Under the pieces are notes generated by a model. The model was given only the letters and a program-made list of their open reading frames with translations, had not been told where the DNA came from and did not search any database. A program made the translations under genes and the position numbers. Source: an uncultured Clostridia bacterium (lineage in GTDB: Bacteria; Acidobacteriota; Aminicenantia; JAMOAD01). Taken from it: DNA of 57,565 nucleotides. The stretch is from positions 1 through 57,565 of the forward strand of contig CAZWJH010000005.1 in assembly GCA_964634755.1 (NCBI GenBank). Direction: 5' to 3'. Within the stretch, counting starts at the first letter, position 1. Every line of letters begins with the position of its first letter. Below, piece by piece: positions 1,997-57,017 of this stretch.

Positions 1997-3585
1997 ATGT
2001 TGATGAGAAAACAGAAATTTCTTTTTATATATTTCTTTTAGGATTTTTAACATCGGGTTTTTTTTCTATTTATGTTAGATTTTTTCTTGTAAATTTTGCT
2101 TTTAATATTGATAAAACTCTTTTTGTTTTATTTATATCTTTACTCTTTCTTCTGGGAGGCTTTTCTATAAAAAGGACAAACATTCAGGAAAAGGATTTTA
2201 AAAATTATATTCTTTGGAACTTTTTTGGATTTTATCTTGTTTTATATGTTTTGAGTTTACAAATTACCTTAAGTCCCTCTTTAATTAATATAAGGAAGAT
2301 CTTCTTCTTTTCCCTTTTGACTCTTCCTCTGCCCTTCTTTTTTTCCGGAGTTGTGCTTAGAAAAATTGTGAAGAGTAAAGAGGAATTTTTTAGCTCAACA
2401 AAACTCTTATTAGTTTCCTTTGCGCTTTCTCCTCTTTTTATATTTTTTATTCTCTCAAAAAAACTTAACTTTTGGTTTTCGGGGGGGGCCCTTGGAATAA
2501 TTTACATCGGCTTTCTTATAGTTTTTATAGAAAAAGGGAAAAGGAGATTAATCCCCATTTTATTTGTTGTTCCTATTTTTGCCTTCATGATTGTTGGGAA
2601 TAAAGCAATCTTAAAAAAAATGGCATCTCCTTATAAACCGAATTTGTACTTTGAATCAGAACAGGGAACTTATTTTATTGTTTTTAGAGATAAAAAGGTA
2701 ATTTTTTACAAAAACCTTTTTCTTTTGCACTCTTTTCCGTTTAAGGGGAGTTCTTGTAAAGAAAAAGTTTTAAAAATCATAAGAAATTCAAAGAAAAATA
2801 TGGGAAGTGTTTTAATAATCGGAGAAAATCCTAAAATAGTGGATATCTTTTTTTCTGCAGGGCTTTTCAAAATCTATTATTCATTTGAAGATAAAGGGTT
2901 AAAAGAAAATATCCTTTATAATTATCCTTCCATTGTAGTTTATCTTAAAAAAGCCGGGGTAAAAATTTTAAATGATAATGCTTTTTTATTTTTAAAGAAA
3001 GACTCTGTTAAGTTTGATTTAATTTTATTTAATATTAATTTGCAGAATTTTGAAGGTATATATAAAGAAAAATATTGTTGTCTTTTAAAAAAATCATTAA
3101 AGAATGATGGAATGATTATTGTAGAGACAGAAGATAATATTAGTAAAGTATACAATAAAAAAGAATTAATTTTTAAATTTAAAAAATATTATTTATTACT
3201 ATTTTTGTTCTTAGGTATAATACCTATTATTCTCCCATTTTTTATTAGAGGAAAAAGAACTCTCTCTTTTTCTCTCTTGAGTGGCTTTATTTTGAATTAC
3301 TTTTTAGCAATGAAACTGTTTTCATTATTATCAGAAAAGCTGTATTCTTATTCCTCTCTTTTACTTTTTATTATCCTCTCTTCCTATTATATTTCCCTTT
3401 TATTTTTTGAGGCTTTTAAACCTTCTATTATTAAAATATCATTATTTTCTTTGCTCTTTTTATTTCTTGTCCTTATCTTCTCTTTATTTTTATATTTAAT
3501 TGCTTTTTTTATATCTCTTTTCTTTTATTCTTTTTTCTATTTTCCTTTGTATTTTAAAAGAATTGCAGGTACAAGCGGGTTTTGA
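1993..3585 (+). CDS. Multi-pass membrane protein with a central degenerate spermidine-synthase/methyltransferase-like domain
   Basis: TM-rich termini; central VLIIGE...LNDNAFLFLKK..KFDLILFN resembles the fused MFS/spermidine synthase family. TTG start overlaps the DUF58 stop. Confidence 0.55.
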   Translation: MNVDEKTEISFYIFLLGFLTSGFFSIYVRFFLVNFAFNIDKTLFVLFISLLFLLGGFSIKRTNIQEKDFKNYILWNFFGFYLVLYVLSLQITLSPSLINIRKIFFFSLLTLPLPFFFSGVVLRKIVKSKEEFFSSTKLLLVSFALSPLFIFFILSKKLNFWFSGGALGIIYIGFLIVFIEKGKRRLIPILFVVPIFAFMIVGNKAILKKMASPYKPNLYFESEQGTYFIVFRDKKVIFYKNLFLLHSFPFKGSSCKEKVLKIIRNSKKNMGSVLIIGENPKIVDIFFSAGLFKIYYSFEDKGLKENILYNYPSIVVYLKKAGVKILNDNAFLFLKKDSVKFDLILFNINLQNFEGIYKEKYCCLLKKSLKNDGMIIVETEDNISKVYNKKELIFKFKKYYLLLFLFLGIIPIILPFFIRGKRTLSFSLLSGFILNYFLAMKLFSLLSEKLYSYSSLLLFIILSSYYISLLFFEAFKPSIIKISLFSLLFLFLVLIFSLFLYLIAFFISLFFYSFFYFPLYFKRIAGTSGF

Positions 3586-4445
3586 TAAGCTTTTCTTAAT
3601 AACTTCTGTCCCTCTTTGGAAATAAGGAATTTAACAAATTTTTCTGCTTTTTCCCTGTTTGGTGCTTTATTTAGAATACTTATTCCGTAAACTACGGATT
3701 TTCCATGTATCGTAACCTTTTTACCGCCTTTTTTAGTAAGCTCCACTTTTGCGGTTTTGTAAAAGTTTTCGTATTTAGGAGAGCTTAAATTTATCTTTTG
3801 AGGCAAAGGTACAAAAGGCAATTTGTGTTGAAGGGCAACAGAGCTGTACTCAAAAGCAGCATCCAACTCTCCTGTTTCAAGAAGGGCAAGAAGCTCCACT
3901 GATTTAGGCCTTATCCATTTATTGCCGATTTTTTTTCTCATTTTTTGATAAAAACCCTTTTCATTGTAATATTTTTCTGCAAGCTGCATAACCATAAGTG
4001 ATCTGTAGCCACAAGGGTCAAGCTCAGGATCCGAGTGCCCTATCATAAAATCCTTTTTCTGGATTATTTTGTACCAATTATCTTTGTTTATTTTCTCTAT
4101 CCATTTTGATTCGGGACTTATTGTAATTACTATTTCATTTGTGGCAAATTCATAGAGAGAGTCTGCAAACTTTGGAAACATCATTGTTTTTATCAACCTG
4201 TAATCTGCTGAAGCCACTATATCAGGAGTTTTCCCGAGCTCTGTTACTCTTCTTATTATTCCTCTTGAACCTCCGGACTCCGTGTAAACTTTAATTCCTG
4301 TTTTTTCAGTAAATTTTTTTGAAATAATTTTAAATGGATATGAGAGAGAACCCGCATGAAAAATTGTGATACTCTTCCCTCCCGCTGAAAATAGAAGAGA
4401 AAGTGAAACCAAAAAAATTGTTAAAATGCTTAAAAATTTTTTCAT
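3537..4445 (-). CDS. wtpA: Tungstate/molybdate ABC transporter substrate-binding protein (WtpA type)
   Basis: Signal peptide; IFHAGSL, ESGGS, DIVASAD, SDPELDPCGYRS, DAAFEYSSVA, YGISIL motifs. Confidence 0.85.
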   Translation of the reverse strand: MKKFLSILTIFLVSLSLLFSAGGKSITIFHAGSLSYPFKIISKKFTEKTGIKVYTESGGSRGIIRRVTELGKTPDIVASADYRLIKTMMFPKFADSLYEFATNEIVITISPESKWIEKINKDNWYKIIQKKDFMIGHSDPELDPCGYRSLMVMQLAEKYYNEKGFYQKMRKKIGNKWIRPKSVELLALLETGELDAAFEYSSVALQHKLPFVPLPQKINLSSPKYENFYKTAKVELTKKGGKKVTIHGKSVVYGISILNKAPNREKAEKFVKFLISKEGQKLLRKAYQNPLVPAILLKYKGK

Positions 4446-4448
4446 TAA

Positions 4449-4552
4449 ATCCTCCTTTCCTAAAATTGGGAGGCAAGGCCGTTTCCAGCTTTACCCTATC
4501 GGTCGGAAAGCATAGCATTTAGCCGTAGCCTTGCCGACTCGGAGTTTTTCAA
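4449..4552 (-). ncRNA. Moco/Tuco riboswitch (molybdenum/tungsten cofactor RNA motif)
   Basis: Minus strand ACTCCGAG...AGGGT..GCTG-GAAA-CGGC..GCCTCCC-AATTTTA-GGAAAGGAGG matches the Moco motif 3' consensus. P1 (ACTCC/GGAG) overlaps the wtpA RBS. Confidence 0.8.
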
Positions 4553-4684
4553 ATAAATAAAAAATTCTATCATAAAAGATTTTTTATTCAAAGGAAAATT
4601 CTAAGAAAATTATTAATAGAGATATTCGTTTGTTTATGGGATTTAAAATATTGATTTTTTTCTGTTTTTTTGCAATACTGAAAT

Positions 4685-5383
4685 ATGAAAAGAGTTGGAA
4701 TTATAGGTGGTATGAGCTGGCAATCGACAATAGAGTATTATAGGGGGCTTAATGCACTTTCAGAAAAGTATGGCGATGGTTTTAGCACAATTGACATTAT
4801 TATTTACTCACTTAACTTTAAAGATGTGGAAAATTTTCAGAGACTCAATGATTGGGATAGTATAGAAAAATTGGTTTCGCTTGCAGCAGTAAATCTTGAA
4901 AGGGCTGGAGCGGATTTTTTAATAATAGCTTCAAATACGATTCATAAAATTTTGCCTTATTTGAAAATGAGAGTGGAGATACCATTTTTAAGCATAATTG
5001 ATGCTGTCGGAGATGAGATTAATAGAAGAGGGGGGAAAAAAGTGGCACTTTTCGGGACAAGATTTATAATGGAAGAAAAATTTTATATTCACGGGCTTAA
5101 AGAGAAAACCAATGCTGAGATTATAGTCCCTGAAAAAAAAGATAGGAATACAATTGACAGAATAATTTTTGAGGAGCTTACCAAGGATATAATAAATGAT
5201 AAATCGAAAAAAGTGCTTTTGAATATCATAAAAAAATTAAAAAAAGAGGGGGCTGATGGAGTTATACTTGGGTGTACTGAACTTCTTTCAATTATCTCTC
5301 AAGAAATATCCCCGATTTCTGTTTTTGATTCAACAAATATTCATATCAAAAAAACCTTTGAATTTGCATTAAAAGATAATTGA
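4685..5383 (+). CDS. Aspartate/glutamate (amino-acid) racemase family, YgeA/RacX-like
   Basis: GIIGGMSWQST, GADFLIIASNTIH, GVILGCTEL. The first catalytic position reads S-N-T (Cys replaced), the second Cys is retained. Confidence 0.88.
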   Translation: MKRVGIIGGMSWQSTIEYYRGLNALSEKYGDGFSTIDIIIYSLNFKDVENFQRLNDWDSIEKLVSLAAVNLERAGADFLIIASNTIHKILPYLKMRVEIPFLSIIDAVGDEINRRGGKKVALFGTRFIMEEKFYIHGLKEKTNAEIIVPEKKDRNTIDRIIFEELTKDIINDKSKKVLLNIIKKLKKEGADGVILGCTELLSIISQEISPISVFDSTNIHIKKTFEFALKDN

Positions 5384-6284: not shown

Positions 6285-6292
6285 TCTTCATA

Positions 6293-6477
6293 AAGCTGAA
6301 CAGCAGACCAGCCGTTCCAGCTGAGCAGCGAAATTGTTCTGCTCTGTTGTCCCAAAAAGGTTTACAGGATTGTATGCTGTATGCAATAGAAAGAAAAGGA
6401 ATGCAAAGAAATATCAAGAAACAGATAACTAATATTTTGCTGGAACAGCTGAGAGCTGGTCGGCTTTGTGAAAGCTT
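6293..6477. repeat. Degenerate octamer (N-GARCAGC-like) repeat with imperfect inverted arms
   Basis: tgaacagc agaccagc cgttccagc tgagcagc at 6297-6329; mirror gctggaac..gctggtc at 6439-6461. Confidence 0.6.
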
Positions 6478-6524: not shown

Positions 6525-9500
6525 ATGAAAAGTTTTAAGTCCATAATTAAAAGCTCTCTTTTTATTTCAGGAGGTACTCTTTTAACAAGACTACTTGGTT
6601 TTGTAAGGGAAATTCTTGCTGCAACTTACTTTGGTAGTGGAAAGCTCTATGATGCTTTTATAATTGCCTTCTCGGTCCCAAACCTTTTCAGAAGAGTTTT
6701 GGGAGAGGAGATGTTTGAAAGAGCTTTTCTTCCTCCTTTTAAAAGGCTTCTCAGCGAAAGCAAAGAAGTGAGAGCTAAAAGATTTTTAATCAAAGCATTT
6801 TTAATTACACTTTTAATCTCTTTAATACTTTTGGCCATACTTTATATTTTTATGCCTCCTCTTATTAAGCTCCTTGCTCCGGGGATGGATCATCAGACTT
6901 TTCTTCTTACTGTTTCCCTTGCTAAAATAATAGCTCCTTTTTTGGTGTTAATTGCAGTGTCCACATTTTTAGGCGCTATCCTTCTTTTTAGCGGAAAAAG
7001 TATAATTTACAGTACTGCTCCCGGTATTATGAATCTTTTAGTTATAATTTTTATGATAATTTTTCATGGTAAAATTGGAATAAAAACGATGGTTTATGCC
7101 TATTTGTTAGGCGCTCTGGGATTTATTATTTATCAAATACCAGCTCTTTTTAAGATAAAAAAAGAAATTGACAAAAAAATAGAAAGAAAAGAGAGTGTAA
7201 GAGTAGGAAAATCCTTTGTTGAAGCTGGAAAGGTGCTTTTATCCTCTATTATTACTAAGAGTGTACAAGTGGTTGATAGGGTAGTGGCATCTCTTATAGG
7301 CGCAGGAGCAATATCATCACTCTGGTATAGTTTCAGAATAATAAATCTTCCGTTTTCAATTTTATCCCTTTCACTTTCACGAAGCATTGCTCCAGAGCTT
7401 TCCAAGATGAGAGGGAAAAAGGATAAGAAAGGATTTAAAGATATAATTGGTTTTGGTATTGATTTGAATCTTATAATTTTGTTCCCTGTAACCCTTTTTA
7501 TTCTCTTTTTTTCAAAAGAAATAGTAGCTCTTTTTTACAAAAGAGGAATGTTTGGGAATACTGCTGTCTCGGAAACCTCTCTTGCTCTTTTTTATTATTC
7601 CTTATCACTTTTGCCAAGCGGATTTATAGCTCTTTTCACAAGAGTTTACTCTTCTCTTGAGGATAACAAACTTCCTCTTTATGCATCCTTTTGGGCTGGT
7701 GGAATTAATATTTTCCTTGATTTTATCCTTTACAGAACTCCTTTAAAACAGGGTGGGATTGCTCTTGCGACTGCAATCGCATTGATAGTTCAGTCTTTAA
7801 TACTATTTTTTTATCTTTCAAAGTATGGGATAAAAATTGAATACAGAAGAGTTTTAAGTACTATTGGGAAACTTATCTTTGCTTCTTTTTTCTATATTCC
7901 TTCCTTGTGGATTTTTAAACTCTTCACTTCTAAGGTAAAAAGCCTTTGGAGTATGCTCTTTTTGCTTGGATTAGCCTTTTTAATATCTTTCTCTATTTAC
8001 GGAATAATTGTTTACGGATTCTGGCGGAAAAGGTATTCGAAGAAAAAAAAGGTTATTCTTACAGGTGGTGGAACGGGTGGTCATGTTTACCCTTCACTTT
8101 CAATATATGAAATCTTAAAAAAGAGAGATTTTGTAGGAGATGTTTTATATCTTGGGATAAGGGGAAGAGCTGAGGAAGTAATAGTCCCTCGAAAGGGTAT
8201 AAGGCTTGAGTTTATAACTTCTTCTCCTTTTTCAGGAAATAAGTTTAAAGTATTGCTTAAGCTTTTTAAAGGGACTCTTGAGGCGATAATTAAAATCATC
8301 AAATTCAAACCGCACATTGTTGTTGCAACTGGAGGATATGTTTCAGCCCCTGTGGTTTTTGGTGCATTTTTGTTAAAGCCATTTTTTAAAATAAAAATAA
8401 TAATTGAAGAGCAAAACTTTGTTCCCGGACTTTTAAATAAACTTACATCTTTAATGGCTAATGTTGTTTTTGTTAATTATCGTGAAACATCTTATTTTAT
8501 CTGGAGTAACCGCTGTGTTCTCGCAGGTTATCCTTTGAGGGATGATTATTACAAAGATTATAATAAATTTGTAATAAGGAGAAAGTTAGGCATCCCTGAG
8601 AATAAATTCTTTATTTTAATTACGGGAGGCTCCCTCGGGGCAAGAAGCATAAACAGAGTTACAGCTTTTTCAATGAAAAAACTTATGGAAAATGAAAATT
8701 ATCACATAGTTCATTCATTGGGTCTTGCCTCTTATGATTATTATGATTCTTATGAGGATACAAAAGAGATTCTAAAAAAGGAGCTTGGTGGACTTTTTGA
8801 TGAAAAAAAATTTGAAGTGAAAGAGGAAAATGGTTTTTATTATAAGGGGGAGAGATTTATTCACAATATTGTTGATTATCAAAAAGCTGCTGATTTAATA
8901 ATAAGCAGAGCAGGAGCAGGGGCTATTTCGGAGATTTCCGCTCTTGGGAAAGCTTCCGTTCTTATTCCGAAAAGAGGGCTTCCGGGAGATCATCAGGAGT
9001 TGAATGCAATAAATTTGGTGGAAAAAGAAGCAGCCGAGATAATATTTGAAAAAATTGATTTTAAGAGTGAAATTGATTACATAGATTGTGGTGAGTTTGT
9101 AAAGACCATAAGCTCTCTTGAAAAGAGCAAAGAAAAATTATCACTTCTTGAAAAAAATATAAAACAGTTTTCAATAAAAGAATCAGACAAGATTATTGCT
9201 GATACTGTTGAAGCTGTTTTTGAAGAAAAAGAGATAAATTATATTTTTGAGATTGTTGAACCAAAGTTTGTAAAATTTACAAGGCAATTTGACAGCCTTA
9301 TTCTGTATCTTGACAAAAATATCAAGGAAAAAGGCTTGAATAATCTTTATGCTAAGCTCTACAATAATAAAATAGAAGAGTACATGAGATCAGAAAATTA
9401 TCTTATTGTGAACAGAGCGGTAAAATTAATAGGAAGTTTAAGAAGAGAGGATCTTTACCCTTGGCTCTATGAAAATTTTACCAATTTTAAGGGGTTTTTA

Positions 9501-9989
9501 AAAAGAAATACTTTAATAGGGCTCAAAAAAGCTGATAAGTATTTTTCTTTTTTTAAGGAATTGATATTAAAAGGTATTGATGATTCTTATTATGAAGTTA
9601 GAAGGGGAGCAATTTCTCTTTATAGAAAATTTTATGATGATATGAGTAATGAGGATGAAATAAAAGAAAAAATTCTTGAAAGATTAATGAAAAAATTTGA
9701 AAGCTTTGAAGTGAAAGCGGAGGCTATAAAAGCATCTGCTCTTTTCCTGAATGAAGATGAATTTTTTGCACTTAACAAGTATAATCTTACTTCAAGGAAT
9801 ATAAGAATCAGGGAAGCTCTTTTGGAAAGTATTGAATGCGGGCTTAATATCGGAAAATTCAAAGATAAAAATAAGGTTAAGAACTTTTTAAGACAGATGC
9901 TTATTACCACATCGGAGTTTAAACCTGAATTCAGGGTTAGGGAAAAATATATGAGAGTCGTTAAAAAATTGGAAGGGATAAAGGAATGA
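6525..9989 (+). CDS. murJ-murG: Fusion protein: lipid II flippase MurJ + MurG glycosyltransferase + C-terminal HEAT-repeat domain
   Basis: aa ~1-500 MurJ (TRLLGFVRE, YDAF, PNLFRR). aa ~510-900 MurG (GGGTGGH, GGYVSAP, EQN..PG, GGSLGA, SRAGA, DHQELNA). Helical repeats follow (YYEVRRGAISL, FEVKAEAIKA, NIRIREALLES). One continuous ORF. Confidence 0.9.
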   Translation: MKSFKSIIKSSLFISGGTLLTRLLGFVREILAATYFGSGKLYDAFIIAFSVPNLFRRVLGEEMFERAFLPPFKRLLSESKEVRAKRFLIKAFLITLLISLILLAILYIFMPPLIKLLAPGMDHQTFLLTVSLAKIIAPFLVLIAVSTFLGAILLFSGKSIIYSTAPGIMNLLVIIFMIIFHGKIGIKTMVYAYLLGALGFIIYQIPALFKIKKEIDKKIERKESVRVGKSFVEAGKVLLSSIITKSVQVVDRVVASLIGAGAISSLWYSFRIINLPFSILSLSLSRSIAPELSKMRGKKDKKGFKDIIGFGIDLNLIILFPVTLFILFFSKEIVALFYKRGMFGNTAVSETSLALFYYSLSLLPSGFIALFTRVYSSLEDNKLPLYASFWAGGINIFLDFILYRTPLKQGGIALATAIALIVQSLILFFYLSKYGIKIEYRRVLSTIGKLIFASFFYIPSLWIFKLFTSKVKSLWSMLFLLGLAFLISFSIYGIIVYGFWRKRYSKKKKVILTGGGTGGHVYPSLSIYEILKKRDFVGDVLYLGIRGRAEEVIVPRKGIRLEFITSSPFSGNKFKVLLKLFKGTLEAIIKIIKFKPHIVVATGGYVSAPVVFGAFLLKPFFKIKIIIEEQNFVPGLLNKLTSLMANVVFVNYRETSYFIWSNRCVLAGYPLRDDYYKDYNKFVIRRKLGIPENKFFILITGGSLGARSINRVTAFSMKKLMENENYHIVHSLGLASYDYYDSYEDTKEILKKELGGLFDEKKFEVKEENGFYYKGERFIHNIVDYQKAADLIISRAGAGAISEISALGKASVLIPKRGLPGDHQELNAINLVEKEAAEIIFEKIDFKSEIDYIDCGEFVKTISSLEKSKEKLSLLEKNIKQFSIKESDKIIADTVEAVFEEKEINYIFEIVEPKFVKFTRQFDSLILYLDKNIKEKGLNNLYAKLYNNKIEEYMRSENYLIVNRAVKLIGSLRREDLYPWLYENFTNFKGFLKRNTLIGLKKADKYFSFFKELILKGIDDSYYEVRRGAISLYRKFYDDMSNEDEIKEKILERLMKKFESFEVKAEAIKASALFLNEDEFFALNKYNLTSRNIRIREALLESIECGLNIGKFKDKNKVKNFLRQMLITTSEFKPEFRVREKYMRVVKKLEGIKE

Positions 9990-11092
9990 TAGAATTATTA
10001 ATTGCTCTTTTAAAAATTGCCGGAATAAATTACGGCTTTTTCAGATTAATGAACTATATAACATTCAGAGCTATAATGGCAATGGGAACAGCATTGCTCT
10101 TCAGCTTGATTTTTGGGTTTAAGTTTATTCTTTTTCTTTACAAAAAGAAGTTCAGAGACACATCAGGAGAAACTCTTTCCATAAACGCTTATTCCAAAAG
10201 GGGAACGCCAACCGCTGGAGGGACTTTAATTATTTCTTCAACTCTGTTATCTTTGGTTTTGTGGGGGGATTTTACAAATTCGTTTTTTCTTGTGCTTATA
10301 TCAGCTTTCCTTTATTTCGGATTTGTAGGGTTTTTAGATGATTTCCAGAAATCAAGATTCAAATCATCCCTTTCGGGTTTAAGCCAGCTTGGGAAAACTA
10401 TTCTTATGCTTGCATACATAGTACCCTTTTCCTTTTATTATATCTCACCTCTTTGTCCTATCTCACAAAAATTAAAAACACTTATTTATATCCCCTTTTA
10501 TAAAAATCCTGTGCTTGATTTGGGTGAAATCGGATTTGTACTTTTTATAATATTTGTAATGTTTTCCGTTATAAATTCTGTTAATATGACGGATGGTATG
10601 GATGGTCTTTTGAGTGGGGTTTCTGTTCTCACAATAGGAGTTTACATAGTTTTCGCATATATTATAGGTAATTCCCTTGCATCTTCCCACTATCTTTTTC
10701 CATATATAATGGGTGTGGAGGAGGTGACTGTATTTGGTGCGGCTTTGATAGGAGCTATTTTGGGTTTTCTCTGGTACAATAGCTATCCTGCTGAAATTTT
10801 TATGGGAGATACGGGTTCACTTGCAATTGGTAGTGTGATTGCCCTTATGCTATTTTTCACAAAACAGGAAATGCTTTTTATCATAAGCGGAGGGGTTTTT
10901 ATAGTTGAGATTTTTACATCTCTTTTACAGGAAAAGATAGGAGACAGGTTGGGCAGACGAATGATTTACAGAGCTCCGATTCATCATACCTTAACCCATG
11001 AAGGGATAGCCGAGCCAAAAGCTGTGATAAGAATCTGGATAGTTGCCATAATATTAGCAATAATTTCACTTTTGTCTTTGAAAGTCAGATGA
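9986..11092 (+). CDS. mraY: Phospho-N-acetylmuramoyl-pentapeptide transferase homolog (divergent)
   Basis: YITFRA, KRGTPTAGG, GFLDD, NSVNMTDGMDGL, FMGDTGS, APIHHT. ATGA overlap with the upstream fusion. Confidence 0.88.
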   Translation: MIELLIALLKIAGINYGFFRLMNYITFRAIMAMGTALLFSLIFGFKFILFLYKKKFRDTSGETLSINAYSKRGTPTAGGTLIISSTLLSLVLWGDFTNSFFLVLISAFLYFGFVGFLDDFQKSRFKSSLSGLSQLGKTILMLAYIVPFSFYYISPLCPISQKLKTLIYIPFYKNPVLDLGEIGFVLFIIFVMFSVINSVNMTDGMDGLLSGVSVLTIGVYIVFAYIIGNSLASSHYLFPYIMGVEEVTVFGAALIGAILGFLWYNSYPAEIFMGDTGSLAIGSVIALMLFFTKQEMLFIISGGVFIVEIFTSLLQEKIGDRLGRRMIYRAPIHHTLTHEGIAEPKAVIRIWIVAIILAIISLLSLKVR

Positions 11093-55519: not shown

Positions 55520-55590
55520 ATTTAATGAAAAATCCAAATATTGTTCTTGATTTATTATTAGTGTTTTATTATAATAACCTACTTTGTTGT

Positions 55591-55662
55591 GGCGGTGTAG
55601 CTCAGGGGTAGAGCAAGCGGCTCATATCCGCTGCGTCGGGGGTTCAAATCCCTCCATCGCCA
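55591..55662 (+). tRNA. tRNA with CAT anticodon (probably elongator tRNA-Met)
   Basis: GGCGGTG/CATCGCC acceptor (G1-C72, so not initiator), AGCGG-CTCATAT-CCGCT, GGTTCAAATCC; CCA not encoded. Confidence 0.92.
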
Positions 55663-55673
55663 CTTTTTTCATT

Positions 55674-57017
55674 ATGATTAAAATTTTTCTAAAATTCAGA
55701 AATTTTGTGATTTCAAATAAATTAATAGAAGAAGGAGATAGTATTTTACTATCATTTTCCGGAGGGCCTGATTCCACAGCTCTTGCACTTCTTTTGAAAA
55801 AACTTCAAAAATACATTAACTTTGAGCTATCTCTCTTTTACTTGAATCATGGTTTAAGGGATGATAGTGATGAAGAGGAAAAAAAAGTCAAAGAGTTTGC
55901 GAACAGGTTTGAATTAAGACTTTTCTCAAGAAAAGTTGAGATAAAAGCTGGAAAAGCTAACATTGAGGAAATGGCAAGGGCAATAAGGTATGAAATATTA
56001 AAGGAAATAGCTGAAAAGCATGGATTTAACAAAATTGCCACAGCGCATAATTTAGATGATCAGATAGAGACTTTTTTAATCAGGCTTTTAAGAGGGAGTG
56101 GTTCAAAGGGATTATCCTCAATTCCAATTATAAGAGAAGGTTTTATAATAAGACCTCTTTTGGAGATAAGAAAAAGGGAGATTCTTGATTATCTTAAAAT
56201 GATGAGAATAGAATATGTTACTGATAAAACAAACTTTGATACAAAACTTTTAAGAAACAAAATAAGGCATAGTTTAATTCCACTTCTTGAAAATGAATAC
56301 AATCCTGCAATTGTTAAAATATTAAAAAATGAGATAGAAATTTTAAGAGAAAATGAAGGCTTTATAAAGGAAAAGGCAAAAGAAGTAAAGGGGGATATTA
56401 TAAAAGATAAAAAGCTCAATTTAAAAATATTGAAAAAAGAGCATCCTGCAATAAGGAGCTTTCTTATAAGAGAGTACATAAGAGAACTCAGAGGCTCTTT
56501 AAGAAAAATTACATACTCTCATGTAAAATCAATCTTGGAATTGAAAAAAGGGCAAAAAGTATTTATACCTGATCTTATTCTTATAAGGGAGTATGATTTT
56601 GTTTTGCCGTATATTCAGAAAAAAGTTAAGTATTATGAATACAAAGTGAAAAATGTACCTTTCAGATTAAACATTAAAGAGTTGGAAAAAACTTTTGAAT
56701 TTAGTATGGAAAAGAGTCTCGGGGAGTTTGATGATAAAACCCGTGCTTTTCTTGATTTTGATAAGATAAAGTTTCCGATTATCGTAAGAAAAAGAAAAAA
56801 AGGAGATAGGTATTCTCCTCTCGGGATGAAGGGAAAAACAAAAAAGATAAAGGATATTTTCAATGATATGAAAATAAGCAAAAGCGAAAGAGATTTTTCA
56901 CCTGTTTTTACTGATGCCGAAGGTGAAATACTTTGGGTGAAAGGATTAAGGATAAATGATAAATATAAAGTGGACGAAAGTACTGAAAATATTTTAAGAA
57001 TAGAGGAAATAGAATAA
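55674..57017 (+). CDS. tilS: tRNA(Ile)-lysidine synthetase
   Basis: SFSGGPDS, NHGLR, ARAIRY, TAHNLDDQIET.L.RL.RG, RPLL, RNKIRH, C-terminal GDR..P.G. True start ATG 55674. Confidence 0.95.
   Translation: MIKIFLKFRNFVISNKLIEEGDSILLSFSGGPDSTALALLLKKLQKYINFELSLFYLNHGLRDDSDEEEKKVKEFANRFELRLFSRKVEIKAGKANIEEMARAIRYEILKEIAEKHGFNKIATAHNLDDQIETFLIRLLRGSGSKGLSSIPIIREGFIIRPLLEIRKREILDYLKMMRIEYVTDKTNFDTKLLRNKIRHSLIPLLENEYNPAIVKILKNEIEILRENEGFIKEKAKEVKGDIIKDKKLNLKILKKEHPAIRSFLIREYIRELRGSLRKITYSHVKSILELKKGQKVFIPDLILIREYDFVLPYIQKKVKYYEYKVKNVPFRLNIKELEKTFEFSMEKSLGEFDDKTRAFLDFDKIKFPIIVRKRKKGDRYSPLGMKGKTKKIKDIFNDMKISKSERDFSPVFTDAEGEILWVKGLRINDKYKVDESTENILRIEEIE

Follow-up and report, generated by a model that had tools for sequence, protein, structure and literature searches.

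A MurJ-MurG fusion with a HEAT-like tail, encoded next to mraY in an Aminicenantes-type bacterium, and the wider group of loci to which it belongs

The fusion gene and its overlapping mraY

The 57-kb stretch of DNA analysed in this work (contig CAZWJH010000005.1; hereafter the window) comes from an uncultured Aminicenantes-type bacterium, and carries an open reading frame (ORF) of 1154 amino acids (aa) in which the lipid II flippase MurJ, the glycosyltransferase MurG and a C-terminal tail are joined, followed by an overlapping mraY gene. MraY, MurG and MurJ act in succession in the supply of peptidoglycan precursors, making lipid I, making lipid II and flipping the latter. An initial annotation of the locus, made from the sequence alone, had proposed that MurJ and MurG are fused in a single ORF, which was confirmed by the ORF call and by the Pfam and NCBIfam models; the short basic linker and the full-length MraY coupled through an ATGA, both part of the same proposal, were also found. 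The features of the locus are the following:

6525..9989 (+), stop codon included: ORF of 1154 aa, MurJ-linker-MurG-HEAT-like tail (ORF call, Pfam, NCBIfam)
6525..8024 (+): MurJ domain, aa 1-500, full-length MVF/MOP lipid II flippase (TIGR01695, PF03023)
8025..8051 (+): basic linker RKRYSKKKK, aa 501-509, lying between MurJ's last helix and MurG's first strand
8046..9221 (+): MurG domain, aa 508-899, glycosyltransferase family 28 (GT28) enzyme of GT-B fold (PF03033, PF04101)
9237..9986 (+): C-terminal HEAT-like alpha-solenoid tail, aa 905-1154 (AlphaFold2 [AF2], Foldseek)
9986..9989 (+): ATGA stop/start overlap of the fusion gene and mraY, consistent with translational coupling
9986..11092 (+): mraY, 368 aa, phospho-MurNAc-pentapeptide translocase (TIGR00445; a Glycos_transf_4 member)

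The junction reads ...GFW-RKRYSKKKK-VILTGGGTGGH, and the AF2 model of the whole protein placed the last MurJ helix at residues 474-500 and the first MurG strand at residues 508-513. The mean predicted local distance difference test (pLDDT) of this model was 87.7, and its predicted template modelling score (pTM) was 0.59, a value at which the arrangement of the domains relative to each other is unreliable. A homopolymer of eight adenines (A8, positions 8043-8050) sits exactly in the linker and is a possible site of slippage or sequencing error, and in three related genomes (L013, L023 and L024) murJ and the gene for MurG with its tail are separate and overlapping. Nevertheless, the identical 1154-aa ORF was encoded on three contigs, and these came from no fewer than two independent assemblies (ENA MEGAHIT, 60 kb; JGI, 16 kb), and a search of 5.8 billion proteins recovered at least 31 protein clusters from JGI, ENA, NCBI and Logan (40-72% identity, 1152-1183 aa) that keep a single ORF with the same Pfam architecture. 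In an alignment of 25 sequences the length and charge of the linker were kept but its sequence was not, invariant residues occurred in all three parts of the protein, and neither a start codon nor a ribosome-binding context was seen from which murG could be translated separately. Since the linkers of the relatives differ in sequence, the fusion does not depend on the A8 run, and the idea that an assembly or sequencing error at this run had joined separate murJ and murG genes was rejected as extremely improbable, given the independent assemblies and the conserved relatives. The MurJ-MurG-HEAT fusion is real, and it is conserved across a clade of Acidobacteriota formed by Candidatus Aminicenantes and Thermoanaerobaculia.

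Pfam matches on the fusion protein covered MurJ at aa 33-469 (E = 5.8e-77), and the N- and C-terminal GT28 domains at aa 510-649 and 697-843, respectively. The MurJ domain scored 302.1 bits against TIGR01695 (cut-off 235.55; model positions 1-494 of 506), and aligned with the solved MurJ structures to their natural C-terminus. Residues R22, R28, D43, R56 and R271 aligned with R18, R24, D39, R52 and R270 of the Escherichia coli protein, which we take to be essential residues of the cationic cavity; R22 was conserved in at least 90% of 25 relatives and the other four were invariant. Escherichia coli MurJ has an N-in/C-in topology, and by analogy the C-terminus of the MurJ domain would be cytoplasmic, so that the fused MurG would face its substrates.

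The MurG part was modelled as two alpha/beta domains. Its GGGTGGHVYP loop (with H520) and its GGSLGAR loop aligned with those of E. coli MurG (1F0K), with invariant G, H, S and R positions, and in the family alignment E803 (equivalent to E269) and Q824 (equivalent to Q289) were invariant, and N827 was conserved in at least 90% of the sequences. Residues E269, Q288, Q289 and N292 of the E. coli enzyme are presumably contacts of UDP-N-acetylglucosamine.

The MraY of the window scored 254.2 bits against TIGR00445 (cut-off 192.05) and aligned end to end with the solved E. coli MraY (8G01, E = 8e-64). Residues D118, D119, K122, N197, N200, D203, D206, D275 and H333, with the motifs DD, NxxNxxD, GD and H, were conserved in at least 95% of 55 MraY sequences. 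When both proteins were compared with those of the same relative, MraY was 72% identical and the fusion protein 62% identical. MraY (TIGR00445) is a near-universal single-copy marker (GTDB bac120), although we found no citable source for this in the literature. Judging from these profiles and residues, all three modules are very probably functional peptidoglycan enzymes.

When the tail was modelled alone from a 17-sequence alignment (pLDDT 90.7, pTM 0.86), an all-alpha structure of 14 helices was obtained, in agreement with the helical repeats that had been noticed by the initial annotation. The top Foldseek matches were all HEAT/ARM solenoids (STAG1, symplekin, karyopherin beta2, PP2A-A, AP adaptors and alphaRep), and they were weak, with E values of 5e-3 or worse and TM-scores of at most 0.63. 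The Pfam HEAT models (PF13646 / PF02985) gave 18.5 bits on the tail of the window, below the gathering score of 27.7; weak HEAT matches were obtained in nine of 17 relatives (best E = 8e-4), and Syntrophobacteraceae homologues have HEAT_2 matches on record with E values of 1e-5 or better. A sequence comparison of the tail with the PDB yielded nothing below E 0.08. Most of the conserved residues belong to the generic HEAT signature D..VR..A.

When 1.84 billion clusters were searched with a profile built from the tail, 307 representatives were detected, 171 of them at E 1e-10 or better. The best matches had the architectures MurG-tail (n = 58), MurG-MurJ-tail (n = 12), MurJ-MurG-tail (n = 11, six of which were already in the homologue search of the fusion protein) and MurJ-tail (n = 6), the remaining ones being a few giant multi-HEAT proteins and short entries with the tail alone, which are either genes in their own right or fragments. 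HEAT tail is thus a fair description of this domain, and because its 307 representatives nearly always occur with MurG and/or MurJ, it is a small family specific to the MurG/MurJ system.

Distribution of the MurG-HEAT and mraY pair

One genome per GTDB species was scanned with the fusion alignment, and the 80 best matches, ranked by similarity, were classified with domain hidden Markov models and with reference proteins of the dcw cluster (genes for division and the cell wall) labelled through NCBIfam, taking 10 kb on either side as context. The tail was present in 45 of these loci, and in 40 of them mraY lay immediately downstream, usually overlapping the tail or within ~60 nucleotides (nt) of it, while three loci were at a contig edge and two were without mraY. 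The overlaps between the fusion gene and mraY, or their counterparts in the relatives, were of 4 or 8 nt. Another dcw gene was found within 10 kb in only one of the 45 tail-bearing loci, a Sumerlaeota locus (L045) with murF directly after mraY. Tail-less MurG genes (n = 35) were located in a canonical dcw cluster in 27 cases, with the order rsmH-ftsI-murE-murF-mraY-murD-ftsW-murG-murC...ftsA-ftsZ; the other eight were truncated genes, tail-less genes of the module type (that is, akin to the tail-bearing MurG and MraY pair, hereafter the module) or plain MurGs outside dcw.

The survey showed that the fusion is no singleton but clade-wide, occurring in Candidatus Aminicenantes and Thermoanaerobaculia (L005-L008). 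The pair of MurG-tail and mraY was found in genomes labelled as Acidobacteriota/Holophagae, Myxococcota, Gemmatimonadota, Latescibacterota, Fermentibacteria, Handelsmanbacteria and Sumerlaeota, as well as in Syntrophobacteraceae, among them the cultured Desulforhabdus amnigena; its MraY and that of the window share 52% identity. In Delongbacteria the tail was present (two MurG-tail loci), and mraY was non-adjacent in the assessable loci. A MurG-HEAT gene with mraY immediately behind it and away from dcw is consequently present in eight phyla or more; the phylum counts are approximate, since some labels of metagenome-assembled genomes (MAGs), namely 'Clostridia', 'Patescibacteria', 'Gammaproteobacteria' and 'Bacteroidaceae', look misplaced.

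MurG-HEAT was abundant in Syntrophobacteraceae, with 1339 homologues at E 1e-30 or better; all of those examined (n = 122/122) had the MurG-tail architecture, and their NCBI name was only 'glycosyltransferase'. The best 120 matches of each homologue search were all of the module type, and so were all four loci sampled for context among the nearest MraY homologues, in which the dcw cluster of a module-bearing lineage was not seen. In Syntrophobacteraceae the position purD-purE-sua5-murG.HEAT-mraY-apbA was stable. Elsewhere the flanks consisted of housekeeping genes that varied between relatives, with the murG-HEAT/mraY pair staying intact, and some relatives had peptidoglycan-related neighbours: PBP1a in L001, BacA and MreB in L004, and MurF in L045, where murF was identified by TIGR01143 (342 bits). 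MurG-HEAT followed by MraY is therefore a more basic and far more widespread unit than the fusion.

MurJ joins this unit in several ways. It was fused N-terminally in the window and in L001-L008, and it was encoded by a separate, overlapping upstream gene in L013, L023 and L024 (murJ, murG-tail and mraY, with 4-nt overlaps in L023 and L024), a three-gene operon from which the fusion could plausibly have arisen and which differs from it by one stop codon. In a third arrangement MurJ lay between MurG and the tail, in permuted proteins of 1258-1324 aa (L029, L031, L033, L038, L049, L051, L057, L059, L075 and P0033). These permuted proteins, mostly from Aminicenantes-labelled MAGs, had a linker of ~120-190 aa with no recognised domain and were followed by an overlapping mraY. 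MurJ was absent from the module in most other phyla. The Sumerlaeota MAG (L045:10019-15945) encoded a 1115-aa protein in which MurJ's place between MurG and the tail was taken by a polytopic hydrophobic domain of ~430 aa, with ~16 hydrophobic peaks and not recognised as MurJ; mraY and then murF followed. Split modules, with murG, a tail gene (~230 aa) and mraY in succession, were observed in L026:9998-12996 and L032:10082-13107, so the tail can be a free-standing protein. Other MurJ-family fusions were found in metagenomes (P0034-P0042), 24-29% identical to the MurJ part of the window, in which MurJ was combined with GT4 glycosyltransferase domains (921-1451 aa) or with the O-antigen ligase domain Wzy_C (~950-985 aa).

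A neighbour-joining (NJ) tree of 55 MraYs, built without support values and from uneven sampling and hence only suggestive, nested the group with the N-terminal fusion beside the MurG-tail forms of Acidobacteriota/Holophagae, and the insertion-type groups branched elsewhere. As the MraYs of the permuted type were not sister to those of the clade of the window, the two types of fusion probably arose independently from the three-gene operon, a suggestion that is only as firm as the tree. Module MraYs had a glycine, G319, where dcw MraYs mostly have a serine. The module MraYs of Myxococcota (L011:11937-13316 and L015:11272-12726) carried an insertion of ~100 aa between profile positions 158 and 165, and those of L022, L025 and L034, and of L041 and L047, nearly coincided on very short branches despite their Latescibacterota and Gemmatimonadetes labels.

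A candidate tethered assembly for lipid II synthesis and flipping

What is apparently new is the architecture, together with the accessory domain and the operon; the enzymes and their chemistry are familiar ones, and the distribution is unexpectedly wide. The window and E. coli have three enzyme families in common, MraY, MurG and MurJ, and the key residues are shared, except for MurG Q288, replaced by histidine. In E. coli, however, these are three separate proteins, with mraY-murD-ftsW-murG inside dcw and murJ elsewhere, whereas in the window a single polypeptide comprises MurJ, MurG and an additional HEAT-like domain, and mraY comes after murG, both of them outside dcw. The module found elsewhere resembles the window in that its MurG and its tail are homologous, the C-domain insertion of MurG is shared and mraY lies immediately downstream outside dcw, but it is without the N-terminal MurJ and is annotated merely as 'glycosyltransferase' or MurG; the permuted proteins have the three domains and the downstream mraY in common with the window, and differ in the place of MurJ.

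The initial annotation knew of no characterised MurJ-MurG fusion, and in the searchable literature we found no description of a natural one, of MurG-HEAT, or of mraY and murG leaving dcw; searches on MurJ-MurG and MurG-MurJ fusions returned only laboratory fusions and tags. Natural Mur chimeras have been surveyed (MurE-MurF, MurG-MurC, MurC-MurB, MurC-Ddl, MurD-FtsW and MraY-MurG; PMC10214165). Like the fusion described here, these chimeras, such as MurE-MurF of Bordetella pertussis, are lineage-restricted and combine pathway enzymes in one polypeptide, and they have been read as stabilising a biosynthetic complex (PMC10214165); unlike it, none of the six surveyed types includes the flippase MurJ or a HEAT-type accessory domain. 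The fusion of the window joins an integral transporter of 14 helices to a peripheral glycosyltransferase. Both this fusion and the MurG-HEAT proteins sit in public databases under generic names.

We favour, with moderate confidence, a reading in which the locus encodes the housekeeping machinery for lipid I, lipid II and flipping, tethered in one assembly with the tail as an adaptor, probably for MraY. The two-gene operon would cover the three membrane steps of precursor supply: MraY would make lipid I, the MurG domain would add GlcNAc to give lipid II, and the MurJ domain would flip this product across the membrane to its outer face. Through the 9-residue basic linker, the N-domain of MurG, which faces the membrane, would be held where the last MurJ helix ends in the cytoplasm, presumably beside the groove of transmembrane helices 13-14 thought to hold the undecaprenyl chain, and lipid II would be formed next to its flippase at a 1:1 stoichiometry. 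The HEAT-like tail would act as a protein-protein adaptor completing an MraY-MurG-MurJ assembly, and MraY would be its likeliest partner since the tail is always translated last, directly before the overlapping mraY start; docking may take place during coupled translation. A MurG-MraY interaction is known in E. coli. Because permuted and split forms exist, the benefit would lie in proximity and stoichiometry rather than in a sealed channel. The covalent channelling machine put forward by the initial annotation is therefore retained in part: tethering and stoichiometry are favoured, while a precisely built covalent channel is disfavoured by the two MurJ domain orders.

The same annotation had proposed either that the locus replaces the canonical genes or that it forms a paralogous pathway alongside them, and the evidence, which is indirect, favours replacement. 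The housekeeping reading is preferred because the scores of MurJ and MraY lie above the curated equivalog thresholds and the checked catalytic and substrate residues are kept, with the exception of MurG Q288. It is further favoured by the stronger conservation of MraY than of the fusion protein, by the variable housekeeping flanks around an intact pair, by the peptidoglycan-related neighbours in some relatives, by the absence of polysaccharide genes beside the module and by the single-copy status of MraY. On balance, the module is probably the sole housekeeping copy of the organism, relocated from dcw.

Several observations weigh against this reading. The MurG domain scored 216.9 bits against TIGR01133, below the cut-off of 250.25, and its C-domain has an insertion of ~20 residues relative to E. 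coli MurG (1F0K) that coincides with the shortfall; in addition, Q288 of the E. coli enzyme corresponds to an invariant H823 in the fusion family. These three traits would also fit an old paralogue. In MraY, R57 and D58 (10154-10159) replace the G and Q of the MraY_sig1 signature (GQ..R..GP..H), a module-specific change in a stretch that we place, assuming the usual MraY topology, in a cytoplasmic loop; the signature is weak or absent in module MraYs, and PF10555 (MraY_sig1) is not recorded for the MraY of the window or its closest relatives. The change may mark a docking site, or it may reflect divergence. All 41 module MraYs formed one cross-phylum clade in the NJ tree. The context of 10 kb per side leaves room for a second, dcw-encoded mraY, murG or murJ, cultured Myxococcota have a complete dcw cluster and yet some Myxococcota MAGs carry the module, and the full-length model gives no reliable inter-domain arrangement.

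Most of these points are shared by an alternative that we regard as unlikely, in which the module is a second set for a lipid-linked glycan beside the mraY and murG of dcw; its product, needed for instance in a particular growth mode, under stress or at a cell pole, would be a variant lipid-linked glycan or a specialised peptidoglycan. This alternative would agree with the constant detachment of the module from dcw, and with the grouping of module MraYs across phyla (Gemmatimonadota and Latescibacterota, versus canonical Bacteroidota and Eisenbacteria) rather than with the canonical MraYs of related phyla, as well as with the MurJ-family fusions to GT4 or O-antigen-ligase domains mentioned above. 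A precedent is provided by MglA/MurG2 of Kitasatospora and Streptomyces, a GT28 enzyme outside dcw that can make lipid II (PMC8092295); it is a stand-alone protein that coexists with the dcw murG, and differs from the protein of the window in being without MurJ, the HEAT tail and a coupled MraY. However, besides the equivalog scores and the residues already cited, no polysaccharide or sugar-modification genes were found beside the module in ~45 loci, whose flanks were housekeeping genes, and in L045 murF follows mraY. Module-bearing phyla also gave no canonical dcw murG among the 80 best matches, which is weak evidence because these matches were ranked by similarity.

A further alternative, somewhat less probable still, accepts the housekeeping role of the genes but not the docking of the tail on MraY: fusion and overlap would only secure co-expression and stoichiometry, and the tail would bind Mur ligases (MurF), MreB, FtsZ-associated scaffolds or the membrane, or regulate MurG. 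The two permuted orders and the split versions (L026, L032) show that the geometry is not fixed, the two Delongbacteria loci have MurG-tail without an adjacent mraY, the generic HEAT signature accounts for most of the conserved tail residues, and the described Mur chimeras include non-consecutive enzyme pairs thought to stabilise complexes (PMC10214165). In contrast, 40 of the 42 assessable loci, spread over at least eight phyla, keep the tail adjacent to mraY however MurJ is rearranged, with the tail invariably at the C-terminus and just ahead of the mraY start. From this gene order we propose, tentatively and at less than even chances, that the tail docks MraY. The full scenario, in which mraY and murG left dcw as a unit in at least eight phyla, the tail clamps MurG to MraY, and MurJ was independently welded on twice in Aminicenantes-type lineages to give a stoichiometric supercomplex, is slightly more doubtful.

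The physical coupling of lipid II synthesis by MraY and MurG to export by MurJ is a standing question, and so far the evidence for it has come from a few model species, in which localisation and interactions were studied. A conserved MurJ-MurG fusion in two domain orders, with a coupled mraY downstream, is 'Rosetta-stone' evidence that the three proteins cooperate, and could offer a ready-made, possibly stable complex for cryo-electron microscopy and in-vitro reconstitution of three antibiotic targets. If the full scenario outlined above is true, this would be a natural, isolable lipid II factory and a physical proof of coupled synthesis and flipping. The HEAT-like tail would represent a new, family-specific accessory domain of MurG, and in many phyla that have received little study two core genes would have departed together from a dcw cluster that is supposed to be very stable. 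The cultured D. amnigena carries the module and makes it directly studiable.

Genomic surroundings of the operon

Annotation of all the ORFs of at least 100 aa revealed no other dcw, mur or fts gene within the window, in keeping with the initial annotation, which had pointed out the absence of neighbouring mur ligase, ftsW and fts genes. The neighbours were ordinary chromosomal genes, including those for an amino-acid racemase, a TPR-redoxin and a DEAD helicase, together with sucCD, gltX, relA, htpG and fab genes. Rfam gave no match in or beside the fusion/mraY operon, and promoter and terminator scans around it were uninformative because the DNA is AT-rich. In the 240-nt region 5' of the fusion gene a long-range stem was predicted at 6287-6475 (minimum free energy -65.7 kcal/mol, z = -3.6; none of 200 shuffled sequences was equally stable). 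This leader sequence showed no conservation upstream of the fusion gene in L004, L005 and L007, and a regulatory RNA was dropped as a candidate, as the leader folds well yet is unconserved in sequence among relatives.

The racemase gene (4685-5383, +), of the Asp/Glu family TIGR00035, is located 1.1 kb upstream on the same strand as the fusion gene, and its product could feed D-amino acids to peptidoglycan; its linkage to the fusion gene was not kept in the relatives. A molybdenum cofactor (Moco) riboswitch (Rfam RF01055, 71 bits; 4436-4556, -) was detected directly 5' of a gene for a periplasmic solute-binding protein, SBP_bac_11 (3537-4445, -), presumably of a molybdate or tungstate transporter. 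Near the end of the window, the TTG start listed for the tilS ORF (55584-57017) overlaps a tRNA-Met gene (55591-55663), and therefore the true start of tilS must be downstream of 55663.

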